From: Cyanidioschyzon merolae
Taxonomy: Eukaryota
Direction: 5' to 3' (one strand)
Assembly: GCA_000091205.1 (NCBI GenBank)
Contig: AP006489.2
DNA: 64,000 bases
In this document: positions 1-35,642 of the stretch, in pieces
Position numbering within the stretch: position 1 is the stretch's first letter
How the letters are laid out: the number at the start of each line of letters is the position of its first letter
Notes under the pieces: generated by a model
The model's input: the letters and a program-made list of their open reading frames with translations, nothing else
What the model was told of the DNA's origin: nothing
Databases searched by the model: none
Program-made: the position numbers and the translations under genes

Positions 1-664
1 CGTCAAATTCGTATGCAGTTCAAACTGGCAGTGCACCGAGCTTTGTACCAATTCATTGCCCTTGATTCAGTCCAATCGAAGACATTTTTACTCTTTTCAA
101 ACGACTTTTTGTACGCTCACGAATCCATAGACGAGTCGTTTGCATCCATGACGCCGTTCTTGGACAAGCCGTTCTCTTCCAGCGCCAGTGATCAAATGCC
201 CTGTTACCGCTCTGCCCGTACACAGGAGCGGGGGTACGGAAAGGCGTGCTTCCGTCTGTGTGCAGATCGGCAATGGAGGACCTGACGAAAGGGTACTTGA
301 TGGATCTTGGAATCATCTATAGACAGAAAAGGTGAACGCCAGTTTCACTGTCCATCGGGCGGGTCTGAAACTAGAGGAATAGAAAACGGATAAATAGCAG
401 GTTAACTAGATGGATATAGAATCGTCAAGTCAACGAAAAGGCGAGGGAACTCCCTCACGAAGAAGGGATACATCTTCGAGAAAAGACGACGAAGGTGACC
501 AGGATCGACGAACTCTCGAAGCGCAAAGATGAGTCTGGAGTCATTGCGTTGGTCTCCCGAAGAATATACGTCAACGGGGAGAGACTTCGAAACAGCGATA
601 TGCAGGACGCCACCAGGAAACTTTCAGGATCTCACTCGAGATGTTTCGTCTCGAGTATCTCGAA

Positions 665-1965
665 TTGAGGTACCTCGTTACGAAGACATTCGCAGGGTTT
701 CCGCTCGTTTCGTTGCCAGCTGTTCACATGCTTCCGGAAGTTTTCGATCAAACCCTTTATGCGACATCACAACGGATGATCGTAGAATTAACAGTGCACA
801 CATGCGCTTCCCAGAATACCTTGACACGTTACCGCACCACATCGGCGTTTAGAACATCCACCGTGCAGGTTGTCACAGAGGATCCATTAGGGCTCGGCAA
901 CAAGATGCGGGTCCATACAGCGCACTTCATGCGGCAAACGATACGGGCATTATACCGTAACCTCGCTCGTCGATCATAGCAGGAAACGGCGGAAGGAATT
1001 CTCACTGTGTCGTTGGAGACAAATGACGAGCTGGTTATGGCGGAAGCGATATCGCAACGAAAGCGAGAATCGCTTCAGAGCGTCCAAACGCATCATGGCG
1101 CTTGGCATACGATCGTACGGATGAACATGGCACACAAAGGAAGGTCGCAACGGAATGACTTTCTTCGTTGTACCTTGCGCTTCCACGTCATCCAGAACAG
1201 AGCGTTTCCTGTCAAGCGTATGTGAGCGTCCACACACGGCTCCTGTGCCCGGTCTTTGGCAAGCGTCCATGAGATGACGCTAGTGCCGCCAGCAATATCG
1301 GTTGCACGCGGACAAGAAGCCGGCATCCGTTGTGTTCTTAGATGAGTTGAAACTGGCACTGACCCGAAAGCCGCGATTGTTTGCGCCCCAGCCTATGACA
1401 CTGCACATGCGGCAGCGTATAAAGGCTGTACTGATGCCCCTTCGGCGGGCGCATAGCGCGCTCGTAAATGATCCGACTGCCTACAGTGCCTGTCGACGCC
1501 TTTAGGACGAAATATAGGCATCACGTGCTCAGATGCACGCTGAAATACCTAGACAGGCTGTGCCAGAAACAGCATTGTCCCCATGAAATGATGCCCCAGC
1601 AGTCGACTGAGCATCACACAGCACGCTATGCAGAGGCTGGCGGCCCGCTACAGTGTGACTCCATCTGCAACCTTGCGCGCAGGCATTACGCGTTTCGTCA
1701 CAGACTTGAACGACTCGATCAGCATCCAGAACTTTCTCGTGCTTCCGCAGCGTCCAGCGCCTCTGTATCTAGCAAACATACGAGACTGCTGTATCGTACA
1801 CCGTGTAGATATTGTGCTGAAACGCTGCGTACTTGCGATGAAAAGCAATCTCATCATCCAGTCTAGGTCCAATTCGATTCCCATCTGTGCAGCACAGCAT
1901 GCTTCCGTTCAGTGCAAGCAATGCCAACAAGAGCCATGTACCGCCGAATATACAAATCGGTAACG
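665..1965. repeat. Left arm of a large inverted repeat (partner arm 14340-15635, about 98-99% identical, no indels across 974-1884)
   Basis: ORF pairs are mirror images with x+y=16291: 1468..1866(+) vs 14425..14823(-), 132 aa with 1 difference; 1093..1359(-) vs 14932..15198(+); 974..1270(-) vs 15021..15317(+); 641..979(+) vs 15312..15692(-). Similarity starts near 668 and ends near 1960, where the left arm carries one degenerate copy of the 63-bp minisatellite unit. Confidence 0.85.
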
Positions 1966-2371
1966 ATTTTCCCGGGCGACCCACGATGGAACAAATATGT
2001 TCCATGGCAAGATACCGCAGGGTACATACATGCAGCAATTGCACTGCACCGACCTACCTCGAGCGAGCAGTCGCGCTTCGACTCCGGCGACGACCAGGCA
2101 CTCCATAGCAGAGCGTTAACACCAAACCCGCCGTCTCGATAAACATCGAAAGCGCGTACCGCACGTACCGTCACGCGGCTACTTCAGCTCGAACCATTGC
2201 GCCTGAGTCGAAACATTCACGCTGCCCTGCTCAGCATCCGTACAGATACCAGACATGACGTTGTGTTCGAACGTTACAGCAGCTACGACTACGACAACTA
2301 CGGAATCTCCGCTATGTGCATGTCGATTCGAGATGCACCCATCCAATCCGTATGTTTGATCTTGCAGCGAT

Positions 2372-4270
2372 TTACGGCTCCATCATGTGCGGGTAGCGCC
2401 AGTCGTCAGGCGGTAGAAAACTTTCCTTGATGGCTCGTGCACTCGTCCAACGCAGTAAATTCAGCACGCTGCCGCTTTTGTCATTGGTACCACTCTGACG
2501 CGCGCCTCCAAACGGCTGCTGACCCACAATCGATCCGGTGCACTTGTCGTTGATGTAGAAATTGCCTGCTGCATCGCGTAAGCGATCCGTCAGGGCCATC
2601 ACCGCGCTGCGCTCTCGAGCAAATATTGCACCCGTCAACGCATAATCCGTCCCGTACAGGGCGTGATCCAACGCTGACTCCATTTCAGTGTCCCGATAGA
2701 CATAGACGGTGAGCACTGGACCGAAGATCTCCTCTCGCATGGTGACAAAATCGGGATCTCGGGTCTCGATCAGTGTTGGCTGGATGAAATAGCCGACACG
2801 ATCGTCGCATGAACCACCGTGGATAATCTTCGCGACGGGATTCATTTGCTGTGACGCAGTCCGAGCTTGTTCAATGTAGTTTCGGATTCGCTCGAAGGCC
2901 TGGCGATTGATGACTGCAGACATGAAAATCGAGAAATCCTCCACTGGGCCCTGTTTGATCTGCTGCATCTCGCGAACCAGGCGATCACGCAGTGTTGGCC
3001 AGAGCGACGACGGTACGTACAATCGAGAGGTGGCCGAGCACTTCTGGCCCTGGTACTCAAAGGCTCCGCGGATGGTATGTGGTACGACCCAGTCCAGATC
3101 TGCGCTGGGGTGCACAAAGTGAAAATTCTTACCGCCGGTTTCGCCCACAATGCGAGGGTAATTGCGATAATGCGGGAGGTTGCTCGCAACCTGTTGCCAA
3201 ATCGTGCGGAATGTTCGCGTGCTCCCAGTGAAATGGACACCCGCCAGTGCTGGATGCTGGAGGCAGGCACGACTGAACGATGGTCCGTCTCCGGGAAGGA
3301 ACTGGATCACACCCTCGGGGAGGCCCGCTTCCCGCAGAACCTGATACACAAACCACGAACTCAGTTCGGTGTTCGGTGACGGCTTCCAAAGTGCCACATT
3401 GCCCATGATCGCCGGGCTGCTCGGCAGGTTCGCCCCTATCGCAGTAAAATTGAAGGGGCTTATTGCCGCCACAAAACCCTCGAGCGGGCGCCATTCCAGC
3501 CGGTTCCAAACACCACGAGGAAAGTGCTCCGGCGGCTGCATATTGTAAATCTCGCGCATGTACTTGACCCCGAAACGCCAAAAGTCTATCGTTTCGACCG
3601 CGGCATCGATTTCAGCCTGCCATACGTTCTTTGATTGGCCAAACATCGTTGCGGCATTGAGTCGATATCGATATTTTTGAGAGGCAAGTTCAGCAGCTTT
3701 TAGAAAGATAGCTGCACGCTCGTCGGCAGGCGTTCGACTCCAGCGCTCGCGAGCCTCCAATGCGCCCTGAATCGCTTTCTGTACCAGTTGGCCGTCGAGC
3801 GGGCGGTACAACGCAATCACTCGCCGGTGATCGTGAGGCATGACCTGTTCTACGGGTTCAGCATCATCAAAGTATTCCTTACCGTTGACAACGCAAGGTA
3901 CACGAACGGGAAACTGGCTTTTCAGAGCTTCCAGCTCTGCTTTGAGCGCTGCCCGCTCCCTCGATCCGGGCGCATAGTGTTTGTACGTTTCGTTTTCGAT
4001 TGGCGGAAGCTGTGCGTTTCCCAAAATATGTCCGAACGCATTCAGCGCTCCCACACTACCGACAGCAGCAGCACTTGGCGTCGGTGCATCAGCAACAGAG
4101 GTGCGAACCGTGCGATGCTGGAGCGCGCGCTTCGAAAGCTGCTCGGGCGCTGCTCGTCGCTGTTTCCATGCTTTGCCTGAAGTTGCGCTCAGTAACGCTC
4201 CGGGTAGTTGTAAGCGTGCTCCTAGATTGCGCACTTGGTAAATAGCAGGCATAACCTTTCCAAACTCCAT
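2372..4270 (-). CDS. P5CDH: Delta-1-pyrroline-5-carboxylate dehydrogenase (ALDH4A1-type aldehyde dehydrogenase), with a presequence-like N-terminus
   Basis: 632-aa ORF with ALDH-fold signatures: catalytic Cys context FEYQGQKCSATSRLYVPSSLWP, GETGGKNFHFVHPSADLD and NAxxFGQ motifs. Length and motifs match mitochondrial P5CDH. Confidence 0.85.
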   Translation of the reverse strand: MEFGKVMPAIYQVRNLGARLQLPGALLSATSGKAWKQRRAAPEQLSKRALQHRTVRTSVADAPTPSAAAVGSVGALNAFGHILGNAQLPPIENETYKHYAPGSRERAALKAELEALKSQFPVRVPCVVNGKEYFDDAEPVEQVMPHDHRRVIALYRPLDGQLVQKAIQGALEARERWSRTPADERAAIFLKAAELASQKYRYRLNAATMFGQSKNVWQAEIDAAVETIDFWRFGVKYMREIYNMQPPEHFPRGVWNRLEWRPLEGFVAAISPFNFTAIGANLPSSPAIMGNVALWKPSPNTELSSWFVYQVLREAGLPEGVIQFLPGDGPSFSRACLQHPALAGVHFTGSTRTFRTIWQQVASNLPHYRNYPRIVGETGGKNFHFVHPSADLDWVVPHTIRGAFEYQGQKCSATSRLYVPSSLWPTLRDRLVREMQQIKQGPVEDFSIFMSAVINRQAFERIRNYIEQARTASQQMNPVAKIIHGGSCDDRVGYFIQPTLIETRDPDFVTMREEIFGPVLTVYVYRDTEMESALDHALYGTDYALTGAIFARERSAVMALTDRLRDAAGNFYINDKCTGSIVGQQPFGGARQSGTNDKSGSVLNLLRWTSARAIKESFLPPDDWRYPHMMEP

Positions 4271-4413
4271 CGGTCCCCGTCTCTATACTTTGACTCGCCT
4301 TGCCTGAGAGCACTTTGGGCGGAATCGGAGGTGCAGCCTCTCCAAGCGATATGCGCCAGACATCGTACTCGAGGCCGTCGTTGCCGCCGCCAGCGCCACC
4401 GCCAGCGTCTTCA

Positions 4414-4878
4414 TACACCGCTGATGTGTACCTCTGATGGGAAGCGTCGACAGTGGAACACGGAAGGAGGACGATGCATAATCGATGCTTCTGTATTCGC
4501 TGGTACGGTGCGTATAATCGGGGATCACTTACACCGCTGATGTGTACCTCTGATGGGAAGCGTCGACAGTGGAACACGGAAGGAGGACGATGGATAATCG
4601 ATGCTTCTGTAATCGCTGGTACGGTGCGTATAACCGGGGATCACTTACACCGCTGATGTGTACCTCTGATGGGAAGCGTCGACAGTGGAACACGGAAGGA
4701 GGACAATGGATAATCGATGCTTCCGTATTCGTTGGTACGGAGCGTATAACCGGGGATCACTTACACCGCTGATGTGTACATCTGATGGGTAGCGTCGACA
4801 GTGGAACACGGAAGGAGGACGATGGATAATCGATGCTTCTGTATTCGCTGGTACGGTGCGTATAATCGGGGATCTCTG
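4414..4878. repeat. 116-bp minisatellite, about 4 tandem copies, immediately 5' of the P5CDH start
   Basis: Identical ORF starts recur at 4453, 4569 and 4801 (116 and 232 bp apart). The unit 'caccgctgatgtgtacctctgatgggaagcgtcgacagtggaacacggaaggaggac...' is read directly with few mismatches. Confidence 0.85.
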
Positions 4879-5402
4879 GTCTGTATGGAAACGTTCTGTC
4901 AAACAAATCGAAAAAATAGAACGCGGATCCGTTCGTCACTGCTCGTCGCGTTGTTCAGAATGCCGATGAGCAGGCGCAATGCGACACTACGGCATGCAGC
5001 GGGGATTCTGTTTTTCCAGCGGCATTCAGAGACACTCGCAACAACAATAGCGTATGCTGGTAGACAGACTAGAAAACACAGATGTCGTTGGATGCGCAAT
5101 CAATGGATCTTTTCTTCAGACGCTCCTGCTGCGCGCTGCACAAAACAGAAATCTTGCGTTTGTCGATGCCTTCGAGAGACGGCACCTGGCATGCCAGCTG
5201 CATGCTTGGCGCTGTGCCAAGCGCGCAAAAAAACGGGACCTGCAGTCCATCAAGGTACAGAAGGGATCTTGTATTGTCAAGTGACAGGCATTTCTCGTGG
5301 AAAAACGCTCTTGCTCGAACACGTTCATCGAGACTCGTAACGATGGTGATCGATGTGTTCACACCAAGTTGGCGCTCGCGCTGGATTCCCTGTTATGGAC
5401 AG

Positions 5403-5590
5403 AGCGCAGAACACGAGGAAAACTGCATATCGACAGATTTGGTCTGTATTTTACCACCGCTTGGCAACGATCCATCAACGCGATGGTATAGTCGCGCACA
5501 ATACGAGGAAAACTGCATATCGACAGATTTGGTCTGTATTTTACCACCGCTTGGCAACGATCCATCAACGCAATCATAGAGTATGCAGCG
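5403..5590. repeat. About 94-bp tandem duplication (2 copies)
   Basis: The motif 'acgaggaaaactgcatatcgacagatttggtctgtattttaccaccgcttggcaacgatccatcaacgc' occurs twice head to tail (5416 and 5510). Confidence 0.8.
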
Positions 5591-6004
5591 TTCCTCATCT
5601 GGTTATCGGTGCTGCGTGCCGAGCTTCCGTATGACGGCGGCTGTAGCAACATTCCAAAACCGAAATCCTTCCGTGGTGCATCAGTTGCAGTGATCCCGCC
5701 CAGTGTCGAACGCGCGGATCTGATTGTCCACCAAATATCTCCAAGTACCATCCTCGCCGCCGTCATCCTCCTCGTCCACGTCCTTCTCGTCGTCGTCATC
5801 GAGAAACATTGTGGAGGTATCTACCAAACGACACAGCGGCAGAATCACTGTACACACCTCTGAGAATCCCTTCGAGCAGTCTCGCTGACAGGCAGCGTCA
5901 ACGCACCTGTCACGCGAGCTATACGTTTATGCACGCCATTTCAGCTGCCTTCATCCTGCCTGGTATGCTTCTCCGCCGATGCGGTGGCATTAGAGTCGAA
6001 GCTT

Positions 6005-7882
6005 TCAATAAATATTTCGACTGTAGAGGTAATGACGCCACTCGCGACGATCCCACAGGTTTTCGATGTAATTAAGGATCGCTGCGTCCACATCGAACCC
6101 GACGAGATCCGTGGTGTTCACACACACGATCTTCGGCTCTGTGAGACGGGTGAGGCCCTCCTCCGGTGTCATGATGTAGCGGGGCGGCGTTTTAGCCTCT
6201 TCCCCTGTGGTGTTACTCCAGCATGACACCTTCAAGTTGAAGTGCTGCTTCATAAGAAGTCGAGTTCCTTCCTGCGGGATCTTCCGCTGATTGCGGTGCA
6301 AGAACATGACAGAACGTCCCATTTTCTCGAGCCGTGCAAGGACATGTTTCCGTGCCGATCCATTCGTGGCGAGCGCGGGTGTCCTGACCAGTTCCTCCGG
6401 AAACGGCCAGAATTGCAACATGCCATGACCCTGAAACAATCCGTGATCGTCGTAGAAGCCCACTGATCCCAGAGCTATCGGTGTAATTTCGGATGGCTCA
6501 TGCAGCGCGAGCGCAGCTAGACGGTACGAGTCCTTGTCGCCGTACAAGTGCCGATAGAAAAAGTCTCGATGGTGGTACATGTACACGGCAAGCATCAAAG
6601 GGCGCCAAAAGCTTCGTTTGCGGTCGATATCACGCCGACGGAGCAGAATCTGACCCGATTCGGAACCGCGCCTGTCCTCTATACGGATGCCACAGGCCTG
6701 CTGCTCGCTTCCAGGCTCCGTGTACTCTACGGTGCCTTCGTACTGGGAGCATGGTGGCGGCCCCAGGGCTTTCAGCATCGTTCGGTACGGAACCAGACGG
6801 CGATAATCTGACGGTTCAAAGAGGCCAAAATAATCGGTCCAGAAAAATCCACCGATATCGCCAAGTCCAAATTTTCCAACGCCAAACAGACCGGTCGGGT
6901 CCAGCAATGGGATATTGTCACTGTCGAGAACAAGGATTTCATCGTACATGCTCAGCACCATCGCAAATACCTTGAGTCCGTATCCCTCAATGTGCAGCTG
7001 TTGCGGACATGACGCATACCAGTTTCGGGTCGTAGCGGAGCCGTTCGCGCGCAGCTCATAAGCCCGTTGGGCAACCTGCTGAATATTTCGGAAGACAACG
7101 GGCGCGAACGTCTTTCGGACCCATGCTTCCAGACCAGGTGTAGGCGCTTCGCCGGCATCCTGGTAGAAGATCTCAACCGGCAGCCGGCATCCAGCACGAT
7201 CTCGCAGGGCCTGCAAAGCCACGAGTCCTAGTTGCATGAGTCCGGGCCCTCCAGCTGGTATCACCACGGCCCTTGTAGCAGTATCCTTGCCGAGTCCGCG
7301 GCGCTGTGCTCGTGCTGGCTGAGGCGGCGGTGACGGTATGGCGGCCATGAATGCCCTCCAGGCATGTGCATGCCCCCGTATGCGTTGCTCATCGTCGTCG
7401 CCCTGGCCTTCTGCGTGTTTCACGTAAACCTCGTGCGCGGAACAGAGCGCATTTTCAATACCGATCCAAACCTTGGCGAGCTCTGTCAACTCCTCAGTCG
7501 TCCAGGGCTCGGGCGCAAGCTCCCAGCCCGACAGGCCGCTGGGCACAACTTTCGACGCATCCTCCGAGTCGCCCTCGGGCTGGGCACCGTGCGGTTCCAG
7601 TGGCGCCGAGCCGACTCCCGTGGGATGCTCCGGCGAATTCGCGTAGCTTTTGAAACGCTGCTGCGACCGAGACAGGGTCAAGTGAAACAAGAGCCCAAAC
7701 AGGAGCAGACCACATAGCACGCCAAGGATCCTCTTCGTGCCCGGCGCCGTGTCCTGCAACAGCGTACCCCACTTGTTCCGTATTCCACGGAACCTGGAGG
7801 CAAGTCTCGGTGCCATAGTCACCGGCAAACCGTCAAGCTCCAAGCGCTTGGAAGTGACTAGTCCATCCCCCGCCGATGACAA
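6005..7882 (-). CDS. Type II membrane glycosyltransferase (nucleotide-diphospho-sugar transferase fold; MNN2/GT71-like DxD-type motif)
   Basis: 625 aa. N-terminal TM helix (ILGVLCGLLLFGLLFHLTL) follows a short cytoplasmic tail. The core 'GYGLKVFAMVLSMYDEILVLDSDNIPLLDPTGLF' resembles the GWxxKxxAL..FxE..xLDADN block of Golgi mannosyltransferases, and a GDKD motif lies downstream. Confidence 0.5.
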   Translation of the reverse strand: MSSAGDGLVTSKRLELDGLPVTMAPRLASRFRGIRNKWGTLLQDTAPGTKRILGVLCGLLLFGLLFHLTLSRSQQRFKSYANSPEHPTGVGSAPLEPHGAQPEGDSEDASKVVPSGLSGWELAPEPWTTEELTELAKVWIGIENALCSAHEVYVKHAEGQGDDDEQRIRGHAHAWRAFMAAIPSPPPQPARAQRRGLGKDTATRAVVIPAGGPGLMQLGLVALQALRDRAGCRLPVEIFYQDAGEAPTPGLEAWVRKTFAPVVFRNIQQVAQRAYELRANGSATTRNWYASCPQQLHIEGYGLKVFAMVLSMYDEILVLDSDNIPLLDPTGLFGVGKFGLGDIGGFFWTDYFGLFEPSDYRRLVPYRTMLKALGPPPCSQYEGTVEYTEPGSEQQACGIRIEDRRGSESGQILLRRRDIDRKRSFWRPLMLAVYMYHHRDFFYRHLYGDKDSYRLAALALHEPSEITPIALGSVGFYDDHGLFQGHGMLQFWPFPEELVRTPALATNGSARKHVLARLEKMGRSVMFLHRNQRKIPQEGTRLLMKQHFNLKVSCWSNTTGEEAKTPPRYIMTPEEGLTRLTEPKIVCVNTTDLVGFDVDAAILNYIENLWDRREWRHYLYSRNIY

Positions 7883-8576
7883 GCATCAGAGGCATGACGC
7901 TCGCGGGAAGGCGACCCCGCGGGACGTATCGACCTCTACGTCCCCGGTTTCCGACGCGGGTACGGATCGCGGCGGCAGCGGCGGCGGCAGCGGCATATCC
8001 GTTGCTGCACCGAATTCTGGCATCGATCCGTGGTCAATCTAGACGTTTTGTCATATGGAAAACGATCCGTTGCTGCGGCAGTAGCGTCGACGGCACGCGC
8101 TTGGCGTCATCAGACGAGGTGTTTAGCGGCGCTGGAGAGCGACGACGGCTGCGACCCTTGCTATCCCCTAGTGCTAGCAGCGCCAGCAGCAGCAGATCGA
8201 CTCCTGCGGGCTGCGCCCTACGACGCTTCCCATCGACACACAAACACACAAACATACCCACACATTCACACAGATACCCAAATCCAGGTACAAAGCGAGA
8301 GTCTGAGATACAAGTCGTACGTTCCCTGTTGTCGTTGTGCGAGGCTCACCTGCGCGCACCAGGCCAGCAGGCCCGACCGCGCGCTCTACTACTATGGCGG
8401 GACATGCTGCATCATGAATGCTCGCTCCGATACCAGTGTCTGTCGCATCATCGCGTATCTGTACGCTGTGATGGAACCCCGTGCCCGCAACCCAGCGCAA
8501 CTGCGAATGCGTACGGTCTACCCGGACACGCACCGTCAGGAACGCTTATGGATAATATGGAACCAAAACATACCAT
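7883..8576. promoter_or_regulatory. Divergent intergenic region between the glycosyltransferase (-) and Rtf1-like (+) genes. Contains (GCGGCG/GCAGCG)n and CA-rich tracts
   Basis: Inferred from position between two divergently oriented ORFs, plus low-complexity GC and CA tracts (7960-8000, 8235-8285). No promoter motifs could be confirmed. Confidence 0.2.
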
Positions 8577-10979
8577 TTGATCCCATTTAATCCAGTCCAT
8601 CGGTGCAGCGTCTCCCGATCCACCACATCGATGGCTGGTATCCAGGAGCCGGAGCTGGTGCGGCTTTTCTCGCAGAAGCACCACGACACTGGCAGCGCTT
8701 GTCCTGATCGAGTTCTGATCGGAAGCAGGCGTGTCAGCATGCGACGTAGTCGGGGAAAGTCCGCAAGGCGAAGCCGCAAGCTGGAGCCATGGGAGCTGTC
8801 CAGCGACGACGATGAAGACGGTGCGTTGGCGTCGGGTTCAGGCGACAGCGATGAGAGCTTTGCGAGTGTTTCGGACACAGAGCGTGCGCGTGCTGTGAAC
8901 CAGGTATCGACAGAGACCTCTGGTCGTGCGATGCTACGGGGCAAACGAGTGTCTGGCGCAGCTGCCGCTGGATCCAGCACGGACGACGCTGGCACGCTCC
9001 AGGACCCTGAGAGCAGAGTGAAGCGGCAGCGCGCGGCGCGTCCCAAGGACGACCGACGGACCGGGAGCGACGCGGATACGGACAACCTGGTAAACGCTGA
9101 CACCGCCGCTGAGAAGGCCAAGGAAGCGTCGACTCAGGACCTGAGCGAGCTGGAAGATATCGAAACGGAACCCGAATTCGACGACGGCTACGACGCCGAG
9201 GGTTACGGCGATGAACAGGATCGTGCGCACCTCCTCTCCCTGACGGCAGTCGAACGGGAAACCATTCTTGCAGAGCGCTTCGAGCGCCGACAGAGGGAGT
9301 ACGAAGCATACTTGTTCCGAAAAGCGCTTCGTGAGCGCCGGCGTGCCGCCATCGACGCTCGAAAGCAGCAGCGGGATGCCTCCAGTGCTGACAAGGCAAC
9401 GCTTGCCGAACGTGAAAGAGCGAAAAAGAGAACCCGCAAACAGGCTTTAGATGCCTTAGCACAAGCAAAGAGGCGAGATAAATCGTCTTCTCGGAGGCGT
9501 GCCAGCGATAGCGAGGCATTATCGCAGGCGTCGGATCTCGATGAAAGTGACTGGAGTGCAACACATCCGCCGGGGCTCTCGGAGACCGACTCGGTATCCG
9601 ACATGCCCCACGGTACCGATGAAGAGGAGGATGGTGCTCAGCGCCGTCGCCGTGGCACCCTGCCCGTTTCGGCTAGCGCGAGCGTTCAACGAAGAACTCC
9701 CGTAGAGCGTTCCCACGGCCTGTTGTCGAAGACCATGACATTCGCGGACCTGGTAGATCCACAGACCGGAGCACCGTCACCGCTTGTGTTGACGCGCGGA
9801 CTTGTGGAACGATTCCATCAGAAGCCATGGTTCACTCGGTTTGCTCTGGGTTCGTTCGTGCGAGTGCCGTTACCGCCCACAGCAAGCGCGAATGCCACGT
9901 CGTCGACACCACAGCAACTGCAACAGTACGTTTTGGCGCGTGTAAGTGCGATCCTGAAGGCACCGAGGCTGTACCCGGTACCGTCGACGCAGGTCGTCGA
10001 GGGCGGGCGCCCCGCACCGCCATTCAAAGTAGGGTTTCGGATTCAGGCAGAGCTCTGCGGTCGTCAAAGGCGCTTTTCGGTTGATCAGCTGTCACGGCAC
10101 GCTCCATCAGAGCTCGAGTGGTTGCACTACGAGAAACGTCACCAGGAGCAACGCCTGCCGCTCCCGTCTCGAGATGAGGTCGAAGCGCTGCGAGCCGAGA
10201 AGCTCGCGTTCATGCGAGGCGAGATCCCTGCGACACCCGAGGAGATTGCCGATTTCCAAGCCGAGTTTGAACGTCTTCACCCCGAAGCCGTGAATTATGC
10301 TCGTCGTATCACACAGGTACGGGCGCAACTGGCGCACGCTCAGGAAGCAGGCGACATGGAGAAGCAAAACGCGTTGGCGGCAGAACTGGAGCGCTTGGCG
10401 GAACTCGAGACTCGTTATGGACAGCGCCCGCGTGAGGGCTCGTCCAACGAACAAGTACGTGATATGCTGCTATCGAGAAGGCATCATATGCCGTCGACAG
10501 AGTCCAAGTTCACACCACAGCGTCCAGCTCCGGAAGCGGAACTCCCGCTGGCAGCCTCGCTCATGCTGCTGAAACGCACTGTCGAGGAGCAGAACGCTGT
10601 GGAGCTGGATCCTTTCGCGCGTCGCGTCGCGCGGGGCACGAGTTACTTCTTCACACCCAGCAAAGCGACGTCCTCTGAGGCAGCCACCGACGCAAGTGCA
10701 TCGCTCGAGTCGGAGACCAGGCGGAGCATCGGTGCTACCGGGCAACCGCCACCGCCTCCGCCTCCGCCTCGTGAAGCGAATATCCCAGCGAACGCACATC
10801 GCGCAGAGGCCTTGCGGGAACTCATCCCTCAAATAGAGCGTTGGCTATGGTATGGCCCGCTTTTGGAGCCTTTACGCAATGTCGAATTATCATCGGCTGA
10901 TGAGGATGTGTTCCTTGCTTCTCGCGCGCGCTTTGAGCACCTTCGACGCGCCCAGGGCGATGCGTCTGTCGCGCTCTGA
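8577..10979 (+). CDS. RTF1: Rtf1-like Paf1-complex protein (Plus3 domain) with acidic/Ser-rich N-terminus and coiled-coil C-terminus
   Basis: The Plus3-like block 'LTRGLVERFHQKPWFTRFALGSFVRVPLPP...YVLARVSAI...RRFSVDQLSRHAPSELEWLHY' matches the Plus3 consensus (PFFe..v.GcfVRv ... Yrla.I ... fsl..iSn..ft.eE...w). Charged K/E/R coiled-coil regions flank it. The true start is probably an internal Met (MAGIQEP or MRRSRGK). Confidence 0.55.
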   Translation: MIPFNPVHRCSVSRSTTSMAGIQEPELVRLFSQKHHDTGSACPDRVLIGSRRVSMRRSRGKSARRSRKLEPWELSSDDDEDGALASGSGDSDESFASVSDTERARAVNQVSTETSGRAMLRGKRVSGAAAAGSSTDDAGTLQDPESRVKRQRAARPKDDRRTGSDADTDNLVNADTAAEKAKEASTQDLSELEDIETEPEFDDGYDAEGYGDEQDRAHLLSLTAVERETILAERFERRQREYEAYLFRKALRERRRAAIDARKQQRDASSADKATLAERERAKKRTRKQALDALAQAKRRDKSSSRRRASDSEALSQASDLDESDWSATHPPGLSETDSVSDMPHGTDEEEDGAQRRRRGTLPVSASASVQRRTPVERSHGLLSKTMTFADLVDPQTGAPSPLVLTRGLVERFHQKPWFTRFALGSFVRVPLPPTASANATSSTPQQLQQYVLARVSAILKAPRLYPVPSTQVVEGGRPAPPFKVGFRIQAELCGRQRRFSVDQLSRHAPSELEWLHYEKRHQEQRLPLPSRDEVEALRAEKLAFMRGEIPATPEEIADFQAEFERLHPEAVNYARRITQVRAQLAHAQEAGDMEKQNALAAELERLAELETRYGQRPREGSSNEQVRDMLLSRRHHMPSTESKFTPQRPAPEAELPLAASLMLLKRTVEEQNAVELDPFARRVARGTSYFFTPSKATSSEAATDASASLESETRRSIGATGQPPPPPPPPREANIPANAHRAEALRELIPQIERWLWYGPLLEPLRNVELSSADEDVFLASRARFEHLRRAQGDASVAL

Positions 10980-11388
10980 CTCGGTCGGGTCCGCTGGCTG
11001 GGGGCAAATACCAGTGATGTGCCCGGGACGGTCTGCTGCAACTGGCGACTGTCGTGCTGCGGCTCGTGATCCAGGGTGTACGCTGGCAAGCGCGAGCGTG
11101 CGCTTGGAACACTAGAAAAAAGAGACAAGTTCGTGGTGTGCCCGTCGACGCCGTGCGTGAAACGTTGCGCGTCTCATGCGCTTGTCCGCCAACCACAGCG
11201 TTGCTGCTGCGTTTTCGAGCAGCATTGGCGACCTGGTGCACTCATGGTCACATGATTAGACGCGGTACCTGGTCGGTAGCGCAGGTCACTGGTTTGGGAA
11301 TGCCGTCCGCGTTTCTTCTTGTCGCGATGGACGTCACCGCAGCACGGTAAAAGCACGAACCCTCGGATCTGGGCGCCCAAGGCCGATT

Positions 11389-13419
11389 CTATGAATCAGG
11401 GAAATCGACCTTTCGTGGCGTGTGTTGGCAGACACCCGGGTCGGTGAATGCATCGCCCACGGGCTCCAGATAGACCACAATACAGGTGGTGTCATCAATG
11501 ACGGATTCCTCGGCCATCCACCGACGCACAGCTTCCTGCACGAGTTGTTCTGCAACAGCTTGCGGCGACTCGCCTTGATCCTTACGTCTGCCAACGAACT
11601 GCACTACATCATCACTGCTGAGGAATTCCCAGATACCGTCGCTACCGAGTACAATGAACGCATCAGCCGGGCATACCTCCAGGTGATAAATTTCCGGATC
11701 GGCGATCACACCGATGTTCTCCACGACCTGGTCACCGAAAGAACGGCTCATGGCGAGGCCAGGGACTCGAGTTGTCGGTAGCCACACTCGCGCCGGTCCT
11801 ATATTGCCATGCCAGGACTCTACGTGGCCTCCCAGGTTCTGGATGCGTTTCCGCTCATCGGGACGGTCGGGCTTGTGGTCGACACTCAGGGCCACCGCGT
11901 AATATCGCGCCTGTTTGCTGCGCGTCGCTGCGGCATCGTCAGACGCCCCGCGTCCAGTCAGCCTTCGACCGAGGACCGCTCGAGAGTCACCGACGTTTGC
12001 GCAGAAGAGTTCGCGGCCGTGAAGCAGGACAATGATGCCCGTGGTGCCGCTAAATCGCGAGTCGATCCCGCCCAGCCCGTCATCCTCATCGTCCACGTCT
12101 GGAATAGATTCCATGCTGGTTGATGGTCGCGAATTTTCCCGAACTGTTGCCACCGCCTGATGCAGCATCGATTTCATGTTGTTCCAGAGGTAGGCAAATG
12201 CATCGGTTTCTGGCTCGAGTTCCAGAAGCTCACCGCGTGCAGTCAAGAGCTGCTCGGCATTCAAACATGTCCGCCGTAGTGCCTCGGCGGGCTTGTCATG
12301 GAGCGCGTGATCGTAGAGGAAGCGCGCAAGCAGTTTCGGAACAATGTTTCGAATGTAGTGCGAACAGAGACGTCCAGCGACACCATGTCCATCGAACACC
12401 GCCCACAGGGCATCGGACAAAACATGCGGTGGAATGTTGCTCCCTGTCGCACGCAGAATCATTTCGTGATACTGTACGGAGGCACCCTTCACGTTCGGGT
12501 TCTCTGGCAAATGCCGCAAACTCAGATGACGTGGAGTCATGACTGTCACAGTCGCAAGCGACGCCTCCGGATCATCGAAGGTGCGCGTTCCCGAACTATC
12601 CTCCATGAGATTGTCGAGGCCATCTCGGGTTGAGATGCGTCGCTCGAGCTTCGACGGCTGACGCGGAATGCACTGCATGTCGCAGGGTTTTGCAACCTCG
12701 TTTTCACCTCTTGGGGCCAAGGTCGAGCAAGTCCACGCTGGGACCAAAGGCATCAATACGCACGCGGAATCCTGGTTCTCCTTGCCTTTCCGCACGGGTT
12801 CCCAGCCGGTTCTGGAAACAACGCCCGCGGATAAACGCAGCGCAGGTCGGGCGGCAGGCGGCTCCAGCGGCAGTTCATAGGACAACTCCGAGTGCAGAAC
12901 CTCTGCAGCACTATCCTGCTTGGTGATAGGCAGTGGTCGCACTACGGCTCCCTTATCGTCAAACTGAACCTTATACTCTTGAAAGTGGTGATGCGCACGG
13001 TTCCGGTTACTTTCTTCGTCTGCGGCGGCAGCCTCGCCGTCCAGGGGAAGCGTTCCCTCGTTCGCGACTGAGAGGCGCCTTCTGGCCCCCAAAAAGGAGA
13101 AAAAGAAACGGTCAGACCGGCGGTCAAGCGAAAGTCGGCCGCCGGAGCTCTCCGAGGCGGCGCCAACTGCCGCGCCCTCCTGCTCTCCAGCAGCGGCACT
13201 TGACTGCTGTTGCGACTTGTGCTCCGTGCGACCGCCACCAGCGTTAGGTTGCACCCCCGCTGCTGTGCTCCGTTCCCCGGGAACTGAAGAAGCGCCCCTG
13301 TTCTTCTTCTGCGCGGTCGTTGAACTGGTCGGTTGCTGGGAGCCTCCGTTGTGAACTGTGTCCACGCAGTCGTCGTCGAGTTTCGTGTCGAGGTCCAACT
13401 TGGACTTGCAGAGACCCAT
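11389..13419 (-). CDS. Protein phosphatase 2C (PPM family) with N-myristoylation/palmitoylation start MGLCKSK and a long Ser/Ala/Gly-rich N-terminal extension
   Basis: PP2C motifs FAVFDGHGVAGRLCSHY, LSVDHKPDRPDERKRIQNLGGHV, GLAMSRSFGD and VLGSDGIWEFLSSDDVV are present. The ATG was checked in the sequence (atgggtctctgcaagtccaag). Confidence 0.9.
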   Translation of the reverse strand: MGLCKSKLDLDTKLDDDCVDTVHNGGSQQPTSSTTAQKKNRGASSVPGERSTAAGVQPNAGGGRTEHKSQQQSSAAAGEQEGAAVGAASESSGGRLSLDRRSDRFFFSFLGARRRLSVANEGTLPLDGEAAAADEESNRNRAHHHFQEYKVQFDDKGAVVRPLPITKQDSAAEVLHSELSYELPLEPPAARPALRLSAGVVSRTGWEPVRKGKENQDSACVLMPLVPAWTCSTLAPRGENEVAKPCDMQCIPRQPSKLERRISTRDGLDNLMEDSSGTRTFDDPEASLATVTVMTPRHLSLRHLPENPNVKGASVQYHEMILRATGSNIPPHVLSDALWAVFDGHGVAGRLCSHYIRNIVPKLLARFLYDHALHDKPAEALRRTCLNAEQLLTARGELLELEPETDAFAYLWNNMKSMLHQAVATVRENSRPSTSMESIPDVDDEDDGLGGIDSRFSGTTGIIVLLHGRELFCANVGDSRAVLGRRLTGRGASDDAAATRSKQARYYAVALSVDHKPDRPDERKRIQNLGGHVESWHGNIGPARVWLPTTRVPGLAMSRSFGDQVVENIGVIADPEIYHLEVCPADAFIVLGSDGIWEFLSSDDVVQFVGRRKDQGESPQAVAEQLVQEAVRRWMAEESVIDDTTCIVVYLEPVGDAFTDPGVCQHTPRKVDFPDS

Positions 13420-13790
13420 GACTCTTCGCCGCTACTTCGATTCCAAAGCGTTACGAAGTTCCGTCGCAAGTCGAGCGCCGATCTATAATCGTTACGGTGC
13501 CGTACTCCAGTGAGAGGCACACGCTGTACGCAGAGCAAGGTTCACCAACAAGGTAGCGCAGGGAGTCGTGTCCAGTGCGTTTCTCGCTCTGACTCTGTCT
13601 CTGACTTTGCCCGGCTGCTTATCCCGTGTGGACACGTCCGAACACGTGTACGTCATTTGCGCGTGGCGATGGCGGCGGTGATGGCGCGTCGTTGGCGGGC
13701 GCGTCATCCCCGCTGCTGCTCGAAGCGCTTGATGAGGCCTCTGCTCCGCTGGTACCAGGTACACGTCGTTGGTTGTATCGGGTACTGGAA

Positions 13791-14355
13791 CACCAGTGCC
13801 TACAACGACTTGTGAAGAGAACTTGTTTCCTGTGTATATTCGGCGGTACATAACACCAGTACCTACAACGACTTGTCAAGAGAAGTTGTTTCCTGTGTAT
13901 ATTCGGCGGTACATAACACCAGTACCTACAACGACTTGTCAAGGGAACTTGTTTCCTGTGTATATTCGGCGGTACATACCACCAGTACCTACAACGACTT
14001 GTCAAGAGAACTTGTTTCCTGTGTATATTCGGCGGTACATACCACCAGTACCTACAACGACTTGTCAAGAGAACTTGTTTCCTGTGTATATTCGGCGGTA
14101 CATAACACCAGTACCTACAACGACTTGTCAAGAGAACTTGTTTCCTGTGTATATTCGGCGGTACATAACACCAGTACCTACAACGACTTGTCAAGAGAAC
14201 TTGTTTCCTGTGTATATTCGGCGGTACATAACACCAGTACCTACAACGACTTGTCAAGAGAACTTGTTTCCTGTGTATATTCGGCGGTACATAACACCAG
14301 TACCTACAACGACTTGTCAAGAGAACTTGTTTCCTGTGTATATTCGGCGGTACAT
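13791..14355. repeat. 63-bp minisatellite, about 9 tandem copies, abutting the inner edge of the right inverted-repeat arm
   Basis: The unit 'caccagtacctacaacgacttgtcaagagaacttgtttcctgtgtatattcggcggtacataa' recurs with a 63-bp period (starts 13791, 13854, 13917, 13980...). A period of 21 codons explains the long repetitive ORFs on both strands (TPVPTTTCQENLFPVYIRRYI x n). Confidence 0.9.
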
Positions 14356-15635
14356 GGCTCTTGTTGGCATTGCTTGCACTGAACGGAAGCATGCTGTGCT
14401 GCACAGATGGGAATCGAATTGGACCTAAACTGGATGATGAGGTTGCTTTTCATCGCAAGTACGCAGCGTTTCAGCACAATATCTACACGGTGTACGATAC
14501 AGCAGTCTCGTATGTTTGCTAGATACAGAGGCGCTGGACGCTGCGGAAGCACGAGAAAGTTCTGGATGCTGATCGAGTCGTTCAAGTCTGTGACGAAACG
14601 CGTAATGCCTGCGCGCAAGGTTGCAGATGGAGTCACACTGTAGCGGGCCGCCAGCCTCTGCATAGCGTGCTGTGTGATGCTCAGTCGACTGCTGGGGCAT
14701 CATTTCATGGGGACAATGCTGTTTCTGGCACAGCCTGTCTAGGTATTTCAGCGTGCATCTGAGCACGTGATGCCTATATTTCGTCCTAAAGGCGTCGACA
14801 GGCACTGTAGGCAGTCGGATCATTTACGAGCGCGCTATGCGCCCGCCGAAGGGGCATCAGTACAGCCTTTATACGCTGCCGCATGTGCAGTGTCATAGGC
14901 TGGGGCGCAAACAATCGCGGCTATCGGGTCAGTGCCAGTTTCAACTCATCTAAGAACACAACGGATGCCTGCTTCTTGTCCGCGTGCAACCGATATTGCT
15001 GGCGGCACTAGCGTCATCTCATGGACGCTTGCCAAAGACCGGGCACAGGAGCCGTGTGTGGACGCTCACATACGCTTGACAGGAAACGCTCTGTTCTGGA
15101 TCAAGTGGAAGCGCAGGGTACAACGAAGAAAGTCATTCCGTTGCGACCTTCCTTTGTGTGCCATGTTCATCCGTACGATCGTATGCCAAGCGCCATGATG
15201 CGTTTGGACGCTCTGAAGCGATTCTCGCTTTCGTTGCGATATCGCTTCCGCCATAACCAGCTCGTCATTTGTCTCCAACGACACAGTGAGAATTCCTTCC
15301 GCCGTTTCCTGCTATGATCGACGAGCGAGGTTACGGTATAATGCCCGTATCGTTTGCCGCATGAAGCGCTCGGTATCGACCCGCATCTTGTTGCCGAGCC
15401 CTAATGGATCCTCTGTGACAACCTGCACGGTGGATGTTCTAAACGCCGATGTGGTGCGGTAACGTGTCAAGGTATTCTGGGAAGCGCATGTGTGCACTGT
15501 TAATTCTACGATCATCCGTTGTGATGTCGCATAAAGGGTTTGATCGAAAACTTCCGGAAGCATGTGAACAGCTGGCAACGAAACGAGCGGAAACCCTGCG
15601 AATGTCTTCGTAACGAGGTACGTCAAATCGAAATA
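14340..15635. repeat. Right arm of the large inverted repeat (partner 665-1965)
   Basis: See left arm. Mirror-image ORFs have coordinates summing to 16291. Identity stays high for about 1.3 kb with a few substitutions (e.g. SHHPV vs PHHPV). Confidence 0.85.
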
Positions 15636-17302
15636 AATTAGGTTAGCCTTGCTCATGCAAGATGCCTCAACATCGTCGATGGTATTCCGCAACTTTCGAT
15701 GTCATCCATGCAAACGACTCGTATACTAGTCCGAATACATGAAATTGGCCTCTGATATCAGAGAAGACGCCTGGACTCTACATATCCGACGAGAAAAAGT
15801 CCGGCACGAAGAGCATCTCGAAGCATATCTATGCTGCGTACGCCTCCACAGCCACGGACGATGGAAAGCGACGCTATCAAAAAGCAGGGCAGGAGCATTT
15901 CGAATACGGAAGCTATGAGTTTCCGCGAATACGAAGGATGAGGCGCTGGTGGATTCTTCTCGTTGGGCGGTTCGTAGACGACCACAAGACGGCATCGCCG
16001 CTGGAGCTGATATTGTCATTAATCTCGCGAGTCTCTGCTTTACAGCCAATGGTTTTGCCCTCGTTGAATAACCATACGCAGATCCACCGTTTCAGCTGAA
16101 GAAACGCTCATCGACTGAAGAAAGAAACCGACGTTTCTTTGCTCCATACCGATCGCTGATTTCTAGGATCTCCCTGGGTGCTTGTTCGGTGGAAGGCTGT
16201 CGTGCATGAGCTAGGACTCATTTGTTGCGACTGTGTCCCAGTATTTTCAGGACCACGAATCCAAGCGGTTGAGAAACTGAGACGTCTGTGGCGGCTTCCA
16301 TCGTTGCTTTCGCTTTCCGTAAGGTGATCAACAGGACTTTTTCTACCATGGACGGCAAGCACTGTTTTAGAGTATTGGTTTTCGGGTAGAGCGCATCTGG
16401 TTTCTTTCAGTGTTGTTCATTCATCTGCGTATTTTCGTATGACTAACTTCAAGGAGAAATACAGTCCTCCTTGCACTGTTCAGAAAAGAACCTATATCCC
16501 AAAACGCAACTTATCTCCGATCTATAGTATACATTACATCGTAATGTCGGTTTCTTGCTACACATCACATCAAGGATGAAACAAATAACAAAGTTGAGAG
16601 ACTATAAAGAAGCCTGTGATTGTAGTATGCGGCACTGGACTCGGAAACGCGGGGCATTGAGGAAAGTCTTCTGTACCCGCCAAGGGCATAAGCCGAGCGG
16701 TGATGCACGCTTTCTCGCGCCAATGGGTGGCGCTCGAAGGGAGCGGTTCGGTTGACCTACGGGAACTCCTGATCACAGCCAGATGTCACAGCTGGGAGCG
16801 GCGCTCCGAGTCTCAATGTAAAGGAGTTGTGAAGGCCAAGCGAACCCAGATGACAACTTGTGCATGAAAAACCTCGAGAACAACCTGAAGCACCGTATTC
16901 GCAACCTGAATGCTGTCTTCGACATCCCTCCGCTGCTGAAAATACAGCTGGCGTCATTGCAGACACCGATGTAATTTAAAGTAGAAAATGAGATAGAGAA
17001 AAAAAGCAGACGCAGAAAAGACCCCTCAAACGCGTGTGTTGATGACTGCTGGAAGAGCATCAAACTCTGGTACCTGCCTACCTATCTACCTATATGTGTG
17101 TATGTGTGGTCTTGGACGTCTGTCCATTTTACGCTTCCAAGACTATCGAAGCACAGAGAGGAACGCGGCAGCTGGTGACTGACGATGGCCCTGACGCCCA
17201 GCGCGCCCGGTCGCCACACTGCCCGAGCTGAACGCTGCGTCTTTACCCAAGCGGAGCGTTCGAAGCGTTCATAGCAGCTGGCGTACTGCCGCTGCCATAG
17301 TT

Positions 17303-22619: not shown

Positions 22620-22870
22620 AAAGCGATATTGTGTAACCACCGCAAGGAAGCCGCCCTTGTTAAACGCAATGCGATGCTGAATACGACTGTCGATTTCGCG
22701 ATCAAGCCAATATTGTGTAACCACCGCTAGGAAGCCGACCCTGTTAAAAGCGATACCACACAGAATATGACTGTCGATTTCGCGATCAGGCCAATATTGT
22801 GTAACCACCGCAAGGAAGCCGACCCTGTTAAAAGCGATACCACACAGAATACGACTGTCGATTTCGCGAT
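22620..22870. repeat. 84-bp tandem repeat, 3 copies
   Basis: The unit 'atattgtgtaaccaccgcaaggaagccgaccctgttaaaagcgataccacacagaatacgactgtcgatttcgcgatcaggcca' starts at about 22626, 22710 and 22794. It produces the internally repetitive 22491..22997(-) ORF. Confidence 0.85.
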
Positions 22871-23365
22871 CATGCCATTCGTAGTGCCATGCTCGGACTC
22901 TAGTGTGTAGCACTGTACTGCGCAAGGATCGGGGTGATCTCTTCCATATATCTACACATGACATCGTATGAAGCTGGTGCTTGTTCCGACGCACCACATC
23001 TACATGGATATATAAACAAGGACGGCGTCATGTTTTCCGAGGTCGAGTGCGCTCGGTGAAAGAGGAGAGCATGTTCCCTTCAGGTTCCACACTGATTGAC
23101 ATCTGTGTCTCCCACATGCATACGCCAGTATTTGAAAATCTAGAGAGCGCACCAGTATCGTGCCAGGATGGTGTGTGCCTCTGAAACGGCGAAAGCCGCG
23201 CAGTGCCATGCAGCTGGCAGTACCATCTGGACACTGCGGACACAGGTGGCCGCGCACCGTCTTTTCCCGAGAGCGCATCCCATGATGCGCCACGGACGCG
23301 GGAAATCGCAGGTCGTGTCACGGAAACAGCAGATTCCGTGACGCCGGCGATGAACAGCGCATGCG

Positions 23366-35417: not shown

Positions 35418-35538
35418 ACAGCACAAGCAGTAGCACAAGCAGCAGCACAAGCAGCAGCACAAGCAGCAGCACAAGCAGCAGCACAAGCAGCAGCACGAGC
35501 AGCAGCACAAGCAGCAGCACAAGCAGCAGCACAAGCAG
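35418..35538. repeat. (CAGCAGCACAAG)n 12-bp microsatellite, about 10 copies, just upstream of the TRAF-ZnF gene
   Basis: Read directly: cagcacaagcagcagcacaagcag... It produces spurious poly-Leu and poly-Cys ORFs on the minus strand. Confidence 0.9.
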
Positions 35539-35642
35539 AGATATTGCTGGTGACACAAGAAGCAGCACCGGCGATTGTCCCCGAGATTGCTAGCAGCGTA
35601 TTGCGTGGCAACCTGGCGCTCGCCTTCGGTGTCGGGTGAGCT

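Follow-up and report, generated by a model that had tools for sequence, protein, structure and literature searches.

The 64,000-nt window that we analyzed (the whole stretch of DNA under study, from the Cyanidioschyzon merolae genome) contains an inverted low-copy repeat, which is genuine and rather ordinary in kind. We think that it probably stems from an inverted segmental duplication, specific to this species, in which a stretch of intergenic, non-coding DNA of about 1.3 kb came to be present in two copies, and that it was not carried by a transposon. The two copies bracket a block of four genes, and an inversion polymorphism of this block is plausible but unproven.

The repeat and the block that it brackets

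A repeat search of the window returned a single inverted pair, 656-1954 and 14337-15635, with 1,299 nt in each arm and 99% complementarity. When we compared the left and right arms base by base, we found 14 mismatches and no indels (98.9% identity). The arms are 12,382 nt apart, the center of symmetry is at 8145.5, and the edges are sharp: beyond either end, the similarity becomes random at once. Thus, the original prediction of a 1.3-kb inverted repeat with about 98-99% identity was accurate, as was the mirror symmetry without indels that it described around 8145. Of the span that it gave for the repeat (665-15635), the right edge is correct, but the left edge is at 656. With inverted arms of this length and identity on the same chromosome (chromosome 7 of C. 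merolae 10D), the pair qualifies as an inverted low-copy repeat, for which two copies of 1 kb or more and an identity of 95% or more are expected. The features of the locus are:

1..655, no strand: left outer flank (C), non-coding
656..1954, no strand: left arm, non-coding, 1,299 nt, 418 nt downstream of the stop codon of P5CDH
656..669 (mirror 15622-15635), no strand: outermost 14 nt of the arm, with three arm-specific differences (659, 664, and 669)
1955..14336, no strand: block between the arms, 12,382 nt, four genes
2372-4270, minus strand: P5CDH (Aldedh), inside the block
6005-7882, minus strand: Mannosyl_trans3 glycosyltransferase, inside the block
8577-10979, plus strand: Plus-3/Rtf1-like gene, inside the block
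11389-13419, minus strand: PP2C, inside the block
13789..14355, plus strand: 63-bp minisatellite (TRF: 9.0 copies, 98% matches)
14337..15635, no strand: right arm, within the divergent PP2C/AAA_28 intergenic region
15636..17302, no strand: right outer flank (D), non-coding, reaching the AAA_28 gene
17303-19261, plus strand: AAA_28 gene, to the right of the block, beyond the right outer flank

All four of the genes that had been proposed to lie in the 12.4-kb block (P5CDH, the glycosyltransferase, the Rtf1-like gene, and PP2C) were confirmed, and P5CDH is a 100% match to C. merolae 10D. An exact-protein look-up of AAA_28 found no record. The GC content of the arms and flanks is 0.45-0.55, which is not distinctive, so we dropped the idea of a centromere or an AT-rich island.

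The arm itself was said to encode nothing recognizable, and we agree: it has no match in Pfam or Rfam, no tRNA match, and no ORF longer than 132 amino acids. Exact-protein look-ups of the right arm's ORFs of 98 and 114 amino acids found no record. Searching for the concatenated arm ORFs in a database of 5.8 billion proteins also gave no match, but this search missed ORFs that are known to be on record, so it is uninformative. ORFs within the minisatellite did have Pfam matches, which we rejected as repeat artifacts, as no stretch passed on its own.

The minisatellite adjoins the right arm, with nine copies of a 63-bp unit as originally described, and it shares its final 19 nt with the inner end of that arm. 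The left arm had been thought to retain a degenerate unit, but all that it shares with the minisatellite is 19-20 nt (CATGTACCGCCGAATATACA), and these belong to the arm itself. In particular, the left inner flank (1955-2371) does not resemble the unit any more than shuffled sequences do (score of 11, versus 9.6 ± 1.6 and a maximum of 16 for shuffles). The number of copies, as assembled, varies between individuals (9.0 in 10D, 10.0 in environmental contig L015, and 6.0 in L026), as expected for a minisatellite, whose units of 10-100 bp are arranged head to tail. We regard it as a local tandem expansion separate from the duplication, with the 19-nt overlap at the right arm's inner end. We also compared the tandem units of 63, 84, 90, and 116 bp for signs of a common origin, and their similarity was no higher than that of shuffles.

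Independent assemblies and the mobile-element reading

All four arm/flank junctions were recovered across about 30 independent environmental contigs. These contigs are 99.0-99.7% identical to the window over the overlaps, or 0.3-1% diverged from 10D. Because the four junctions are present in independent contigs, the repeat is real, not a mis-assembly, and it is common to strains that, over the aligned stretches, are 0.3-1% diverged from 10D. This effectively refutes a mis-join, which the original prediction had named as an outcome that would overturn it. More broadly, we consider it highly improbable that the repeat is an artifact of the reference assembly, such as a mis-join or a duplicated consensus: beyond the general difficulty of assembling repeats, we found nothing in favor of this, whereas the arms differ at 14 sites and the junctions are reproduced in contigs from both JGI and ENA and from many samples, some of which span the whole arm and both flanks.

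Alternatively, a mobile or dispersed element might have inserted on either side of the block, with the arms as its two copies. Candidates include a foldback element, a MITE-like element, or part of the interspersed element of C. merolae, which has 253 copies of about 3.2 kb, accounts for about 5% of the genome, is reported to be transcribed, and is marked by a truncated ORF, present in hundreds of copies, with weak similarity to WSV486 (Nozaki et al. 2007, PMC1955436). Insertion would fit with both intergenic regions being over 1.3 kb longer than their counterparts in Cyanidiococcus, and with relatives having no homolog of the arm at either site. Like the 3.2-kb element, the arm is non-coding or degenerate repeated DNA in the intergenic space of the same genome; and like foldback transposons and MITEs, the arms are inverted non-coding copies, with a tandem repeat beside one of them.

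However, the structure of the arm argues against insertion, and we view this explanation as very unlikely. First, the arm has no terminal inverted repeats (its internal inverted matches are just 14-15 nt, which is the level expected by chance), no internal tandem structure, and no ORF for a transposase or reverse transcriptase (RT). Second, we read the flanks of both arms directly, and they share no direct repeat that could be a target-site duplication. Third, the tandem repeat is found at the end of one arm only. Fourth, the arm is not dispersed. There is no further copy in the 64-kb window, and in a set of 12 contigs chosen independently of context, through matches to an arm ORF or to a 24-mer from the arm, none placed the arm in a third context: it adjoins only the inner flanks A and B and the outer flanks C and D. 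The low copy number thus holds for near-identical copies in these 12 contigs and in the window, as distinct from any copies below about 90% identity elsewhere in the 16.5-Mb genome. Finally, the arm is not similar to the 3.2-kb repeats in the window (direct repeats at 23365-26601 and 30847-34075) or to the RT element elsewhere in it, and it differs from the 3.2-kb element in being 1.3 kb long and having two contexts. A paper on dispersed repeats (PMC11050394) contains nothing on this locus.

The proposal of a dispersed or foldback-like element with subterminal tandem repeats is therefore not supported: we found neither terminal inverted repeats nor a target-site duplication, no near-identical copies beyond the two contexts in the 12 contigs or the window, and no tandem repeats in both arms. 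Also unlike foldback elements or MITEs, the two copies are 12.4 kb apart, around conserved syntenic genes.

Relatives and the origin of the duplication

The genes Mpv17-AAA_28-PP2C-Plus3-GT-P5CDH-mTERF follow one another in the same relative order, and with the same orientations, in Cyanidiococcus and in relatives at 79-87% identity. In particular, the block in 10D is collinear with Cyanidiococcus yangmingshanensis and with related metagenome contigs. None of these relatives has the inverted repeat. Since the sister genus has the same arrangement and lacks the repeat, the duplication is specific to Cyanidioschyzon, and the orientation in 10D is ancestral. Checking synteny in relatives had been suggested as a test, and the outcome indicates a lineage-specific duplication. 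(Cyanidium caldarium was not informative: its contig has no synteny around P5CDH.)

The two intergenic regions that contain the arms are 1,285 nt and 676-1,153 nt in the relatives but 3,883 nt and over 3,279 nt, respectively, in C. merolae. Using sensitive blastn, we found no homology between either expanded region and the Cyanidiococcus or Cyanidium loci, as the intergenic DNA is too diverged. No homolog of the arm is detectable in relatives that would point to one of the two arms as the parent copy. One contig (L027) carries the left outer flank for 908 nt past the start of the window, and this extension has no homology to the mTERF gene, which is the neighbor of P5CDH in the relatives.

The duplication would have arisen after the split from Cyanidiococcus and before 10D diverged from Yellowstone-like strains, probably as a selectively neutral side effect of template switching or of the repair of a double-strand break. 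Of the two explanations originally offered for the similarity of the arms, recent duplication is supported, and homogenization is possible: the youth of the duplication explains the 98.9% identity of the arms, perhaps together with some gene conversion between them. At site 1371, both arms of 10D differ from the Ga0504 and Ga0506 contigs, which include arms in both contexts. At the outermost edge of the arm, the differences at 664 and 669 were constant across every contig we examined, regardless of strain. Together, these patterns give a hint from sequence comparison of concerted evolution, based on very few sites and on contigs in which the assembler may have collapsed the left and right arms into one. 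The right arm also has a cluster of four changes at 15367-15377 (mirrored by 914-924 in the left arm). This cluster is present in some environmental arms that are joined to the right outer flank (L028, L029, L030, and L034) and was never found in those joined to the left outer flank, and a right-arm allele is polymorphic among arms joined to the right outer flank.

We also considered whether the arms are the footprint of an inversion with staggered breaks. In this scenario, the segment between the nicks was duplicated in inverted orientation at both breakpoints, and the block in 10D was later flipped back via the arms. Inverted duplications exactly at both ends of a segment are a known signature of staggered-break inversions in Drosophila. 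As in those cases, the arms are inverted copies of a short unique sequence that sit exactly at the ends of a multigene segment, and contigs with the inverted configuration do exist (see below). However, the one-step model from Drosophila does not apply, as the segment is not inverted relative to the outgroup: with the 10D block collinear with Cyanidiococcus, two successive events are required. Also, the ancestral single-copy state is not visible in such diverged intergenic DNA. We consider a staggered-break origin to be unlikely.

Orientation of the block and possible transcription across the arms

The original prediction treated the arms as a substrate for inversion, and their size, identity, and orientation are indeed those of a textbook substrate. 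Arms of 1.3 kb at 99% identity are ample for homologous recombination, which is very efficient in C. merolae, as is gene targeting. Nonallelic homologous recombination (NAHR) between the arms would invert the 12.4-kb block without breaking any gene. A known parallel is at human Xq28, where repeats of 11.3 kb with over 99% identity flank the 48-kb FLNA-EMD segment, which has a common inversion polymorphism. As with such inverted low-copy repeats, the arms in C. merolae are highly identical, inverted, on one chromosome, and on either side of intact housekeeping genes; they are also non-coding and intergenic, so inversion would be neutral for genes, and their identity may be maintained by conversion. 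Unlike the Xq28 repeats, the arms are about 10 times smaller and lie in a haploid algal genome of 16.5 Mb that is nearly free of repeats, and unphased contigs only hint at inversion. Inverted arms on either side of a unique segment are also found in plastid genomes, the yeast 2-micron plasmid, and herpesvirus genomes, and by analogy would predict equimolar isomers if recombination is frequent. However, those replicons are multicopy, and some have recombinases of their own, while this locus is nuclear and single copy and has no recombinase.

Thirteen contigs cross the whole arm. Eight have the configuration of 10D and five have P5CDH joined to the AAA_28 flank, in short-read assemblies that cannot phase a 1.3-kb repeat:

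10D configuration: L009, L010, L011, L020, L040, and L041 (left arm); L015 and L016 (right arm)
Inverted configuration: L012 and L017 (42-49 nt of flank), L029 (351 nt), L030, and L026

The five inverted contigs come from five different samples. Among them, L030 was assembled with MEGAHIT, is 21 kb long, and includes about 8 kb on the AAA_28/Mpv17 side; L026 (from contig Ga0080006_1135110) is 46.8 kb.

These contigs raise the possibility that, beyond the duplication itself, the block is actively flipping: both orientations would coexist in natural populations of C. merolae, with the arms kept alike by gene conversion. We put this somewhat short of an even chance. It would account for the five contigs from five samples that run from the P5CDH side through a complete arm into the AAA_28-side flank, for the polymorphic right-arm allele, and for the change at site 1371 that both arms share within a lineage; and the recombination capacity of the arms and of the alga fits as well. 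On the other hand, phasing the repeat is impossible with reads and inserts shorter than 1.3 kb, and an assembly graph offers both orientations as equivalent paths, so every contig that crosses an arm reflects an uninformed choice. Of the contigs that come in from the P5CDH side, six have the 10D orientation and five the inverted one, a split that chance would give. None of the contigs has the reciprocal junction, in which the left outer flank would lead through the arm to the minisatellite, though the minisatellite hinders assembly. Two of the five inverted contigs end just 42-49 nt past the arm, and one inverted contig looks like an RNA assembly, which could merge two transcripts that share the arm. 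Strain SNPs in the P5CDH-side flank did not cleanly separate the inverted contigs from the standard ones, as the contigs are mosaics of the polymorphisms in the population.

If both orientations do occur in the wild, then 10D and Yellowstone strains would differ by a small structural polymorphism. It would be a cryptic and gene-neutral inversion that was missed by the published whole-genome comparison of 10D and MS1, in a genome celebrated as nearly repeat-free: a whole-genome dot plot would probably miss an inversion of 12 kb. If the block does not flip, then the locus is an ordinary segmental duplication. In either case, C. merolae 10D is a model organism whose genome is 100% complete and is usually described as lacking structural complexity, and the locus offers a defined, PCR-testable site at which to measure gene conversion and spontaneous NAHR in a haploid/diploid alga for which crosses are now possible. 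Work at the P5CDH, PP2C, and AAA_28 loci that involves read mapping or homology arms also calls for caution.

Contig ends and one poly(A) tail suggest that both arms are transcribed outward from their inner ends. The left arm would be transcribed as the tail of P5CDH transcripts, and the right arm as a transcript that is divergent from PP2C and that may end at an AATAAA (15632..15637, plus strand) that straddles the junction between the right arm and the outer flank. If the block flips, then the P5CDH read-through transcripts and the PP2C-divergent transcripts would swap the outer flanks, and hence the poly(A) sites, at which they end. The AATAAA at the junction is the only plus-strand copy in 13420-15800, and one contig (L017) has a non-templated A15 tail after 15684, which is 47 nt downstream of it.

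A two-copy inverted duplication around a conserved gene block

The feature is a real, two-copy, lineage-specific inverted low-copy duplication of noncoding intergenic DNA, and it surrounds a syntenically conserved gene block. A repeat search of the first 20 kb and of the whole window found a single large inverted pair, with arms of 1,299 nt that are 99% complementary and 12,382 nt apart. By base-by-base mirror comparison, the arms have 14 mismatches, which fall in clusters, and no indels, with a symmetry center at 8145.5; beyond both arm ends, similarity falls sharply to random.

Arms of the inverted repeat and mismatches between them
656-1954: left arm
14337-15635: right arm
659, 664, and 669: mismatch cluster at the outer edge
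within 914-924: mismatch cluster of four sites
within 1175-1189: mismatch cluster of three sites
1321, 1368, 1849, and 1863: isolated mismatches

The original prediction of an inverted repeat bracketing a 12.4-kb block held up, as did its naming of the four enclosed genes: Pfam identified P5CDH as an aldehyde dehydrogenase, the glycosyltransferase as Mannosyl_trans3, the Rtf1-like protein as Plus-3, and the fourth product as a PP2C phosphatase. The P5CDH protein matches that of C. merolae 10D with 100% identity. Just beyond the right arm is an AAA_28 gene. Approximately 30 independent environmental contigs (from JGI, ENA, or Logan; recovered by exact-protein look-ups and one 24-mer scan) are each 99.0 to 99.7% identical to the window over the overlap. 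All four arm/flank junctions recur in these contigs and the reference arms differ at 14 sites, so an assembly error, which had been considered in the form of a mis-join, is excluded.

In relatives (Cyanidiococcus yangmingshanensis, JANCYV010000018.1, and metagenome contigs that are 79 to 87% identical), the gene order is Mpv17(+) - AAA_28(-) - PP2C(+) - Plus-3(-) - GT(+) - P5CDH(+) - mTERF(-). This matches the window read on the reverse strand, so the orientation of the 10D block relative to AAA_28 is ancestral. No inverted repeat was found at the relatives' locus and no nucleotide homology to the arm was detectable; thus, the duplication is specific to the Cyanidioschyzon lineage. The AAA_28-PP2C spacer is 3,883 nt in the window versus 1,285 nt in the relatives, and the P5CDH-mTERF spacer is over 3,279 nt versus 676 to 1,153 nt; there was no mTERF homology in the first 3 kb of the window or in the 908 nt that precede it. 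Cyanidium has no synteny at this locus. Since the duplication is common to strains that are 0.3 to 1% diverged from 10D (over aligned stretches), it is older than the split of those strains. The divergence between the arms is 1.08%, or about 1.5 times the divergence of 10D from another strain, MS1 (0.71%; PMC13353863).

The arms had also been proposed to be a dispersed or foldback-like element. At word size 9, the arm has no match elsewhere in the 64-kb window, and it does not match the 3.2-kb direct repeats (23365-26601 and 30847-34075) or the reverse transcriptase-bearing segment between them. Terminal inverted repeats, internal tandem structure, and a target-site duplication are all absent. 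As predicted, the arm encodes nothing recognizable: it has no ORF of over 132 amino acids and no match to Pfam, Rfam, or tRNAs. On the inner side, we call the flank toward P5CDH A and the flank toward the minisatellite and PP2C B; the outer flanks are C (left) and D (AAA_28 side). In all 12 of the contigs that were retrieved without regard to context (via a 24-mer from the arm or an ORF inside it), the arm adjoins A or B and C or D, and a third context was found in none of them, which gives a 95% upper bound of less than 1 for further near-identical copies. Therefore, a foldback, MITE, or dispersed repeat is unsupported; judged by near-identical copies, foldback and MITE-like elements are rejected as readings of the feature.

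The predicted minisatellite does run into the right arm, whose first 19 nt are the final 19 nt of an array of 63-bp units (98% matches by TRF). However, the "one degenerate unit" described at the left arm is not there: only those 19 to 20 nt are in common with the 63-bp unit, and the inner flank of the left arm does not score above shuffled sequence. The minisatellite is a separate feature that overlaps one inner arm end.

Tandem arrays
4414-4874: 116 bp x 4, intergenic
5404-5571: 90 bp x 2, intergenic
13789-14355: 63 bp x 9.0, minisatellite
22626-22877: 84 bp x 3, intergenic

When compared with one another, the units of these four arrays showed no relatedness. In the environmental contigs, as assembled, the 63-mer array has 6 to 10 units, and the 116-bp array has one unit fewer in L026, L030, and L040. 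A 12-nt microrepeat of the coding type (GCACAAGCAGCA-like, about 12 copies) lies at 35385-35576.

Orientation of the block and possible exchange between arms

Inverted segmental duplications mediate inversions by NAHR in other eukaryotes, and the C. merolae repeat would work alike, although here inversion is only possible. Environmental contigs that cross a whole arm fall into three of the four possible classes.

Whole-arm crossings by environmental contigs
C-arm-A (10D orientation): L009, L010, L011, L020, L040 (14.5-kb contig), and L041; 6
D-arm-B (10D orientation): L015 and L016; 2
D-arm-A (opposite to 10D): L012, L017, L026, L029, and L030; 5
C-arm-B (opposite to 10D): none; 0

These configurations are how an inversion polymorphism is expected to appear. 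The D portion is merely 42 to 49 nt in L012 and L017 and 351 nt in L029, while L030, a 21-kb MEGAHIT contig, runs from about 8 kb of the Mpv17/AAA_28 flank through the arm to P5CDH and GT. In L026, the final 13.6 kb of a 46.8-kb contig, 198 nt of D are followed by an arm, the entire block (A through B), a minisatellite of 6 units, and 186 nt of the second arm. However, the same set of contigs is exactly what uninformed assembly yields: the two orientations are equivalent paths in the graph, with 1.3 kb spanned by no read or insert; many contigs end at or within the arm (L007, L008, L018, L019, L027, L028, L033-L036, and L042); the A-linked crossings split 6:5, like a coin toss; and the minisatellite may explain the absence of the C-arm-B class by hindering assembly. 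That both orientations really exist is plausible but somewhat doubtful. A whole-genome dot plot could well fail to show a 12-kb event on chromosome 7.

Across all contigs, sites 664 and 669 are fixed differences between C-linked and D-linked arms, and site 659 is polymorphic. The D-linked arms of L028, L029, L030, and L034 also have the cluster seen at 914-924 in the 10D right arm, but no C-linked environmental arm does; other D-linked arms have the left-type allele. The changes at 1175-1189, 1321, and 1863 are in the 10D right arm only. The change at 1368 is in the 10D left arm only; so is the change at 1849, apart from L008 and the 186-nt second arm of L026, which are both short fragments of an arm. 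At site 1371, the two 10D arms share one state, and arms from the Ga0504/Ga0506 series have the other in either context. Taken together, this pattern is a hint that some gene conversion occurs between the arms and spares the extreme edge, as judged from few sites in arms that assemblers may have collapsed. Separately, window position 791 is where L019 (3731-3799; JGI 3300054994) exits the arm; it resumes at about 1320 in the same orientation. An assembly loop within the arm could account for this, as could a tandem duplication or a circular or back-spliced junction.

Possible transcription of the arms

Straight after window position 15684, L017 has an A15 tail (4045-4059) that is absent from the genome. 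Between 13420 and 15800, the + strand has a single AATAAA, at 15632-15637; it straddles the arm/D junction, 47 nt upstream of the tail. The hexamer arises from the joining of the right arm to its outer flank, and the left arm/outer flank junction does not contain it. Several Ga0506 contigs start slightly upstream of P5CDH, cross the left arm, and end 53 to 119 nt past its outer edge; L001 and L015, from one sample, overlap by 38 nt at 13651-13688, upstream of PP2C. These patterns are consistent with RNA-derived assemblies. A Yellowstone project (Lemonade Creek) includes both metagenomes and poly-A metatranscriptomes, with 10D-like C. merolae present (PMC11662350). The contig ends and the A15 tail give a slight indication that transcription runs through both arms, outward from the inner end.

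Other repeats and genes in the window

The two 3.2-kb direct repeats are 96% identical and 7.48 kb apart, and the ORFs between them (26602-30846) include a reverse transcriptase (RVT_1, 28117-29034). This arrangement looks LTR-like or like tandem non-LTR copies, although C. merolae is said to lack LTR elements. Adjoining the second repeat, 30549-30844 has a diverged (74%) inverted partial copy about 13 kb away, at 44008-44290, which is probably a further, older copy of this dispersed element. In size, the direct repeats match the "253-copy interspersed element" that was described in C. merolae (3.2 kb; Nozaki 2007, PMC1955436).

Between the glycosyltransferase and Plus-3 genes, a 234-amino-acid ORF (7876-8580, + strand; 228 amino acids on JGI contigs) was predicted on the JGI contigs by prokaryotic gene callers. 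Its DNA is 63 to 65% GC, and it has no Pfam match and no counterpart in the Cyanidiococcus annotation; it is probably spurious. A proline dehydrogenase gene (45524-47617) is about 41 kb from P5CDH, so chromosome 7 carries both enzymes of proline catabolism in loose linkage. Finally, 58490-60676 encodes a 728-amino-acid protein with Kelch repeats and a C-terminal Hint (hedgehog/intein-type) module.
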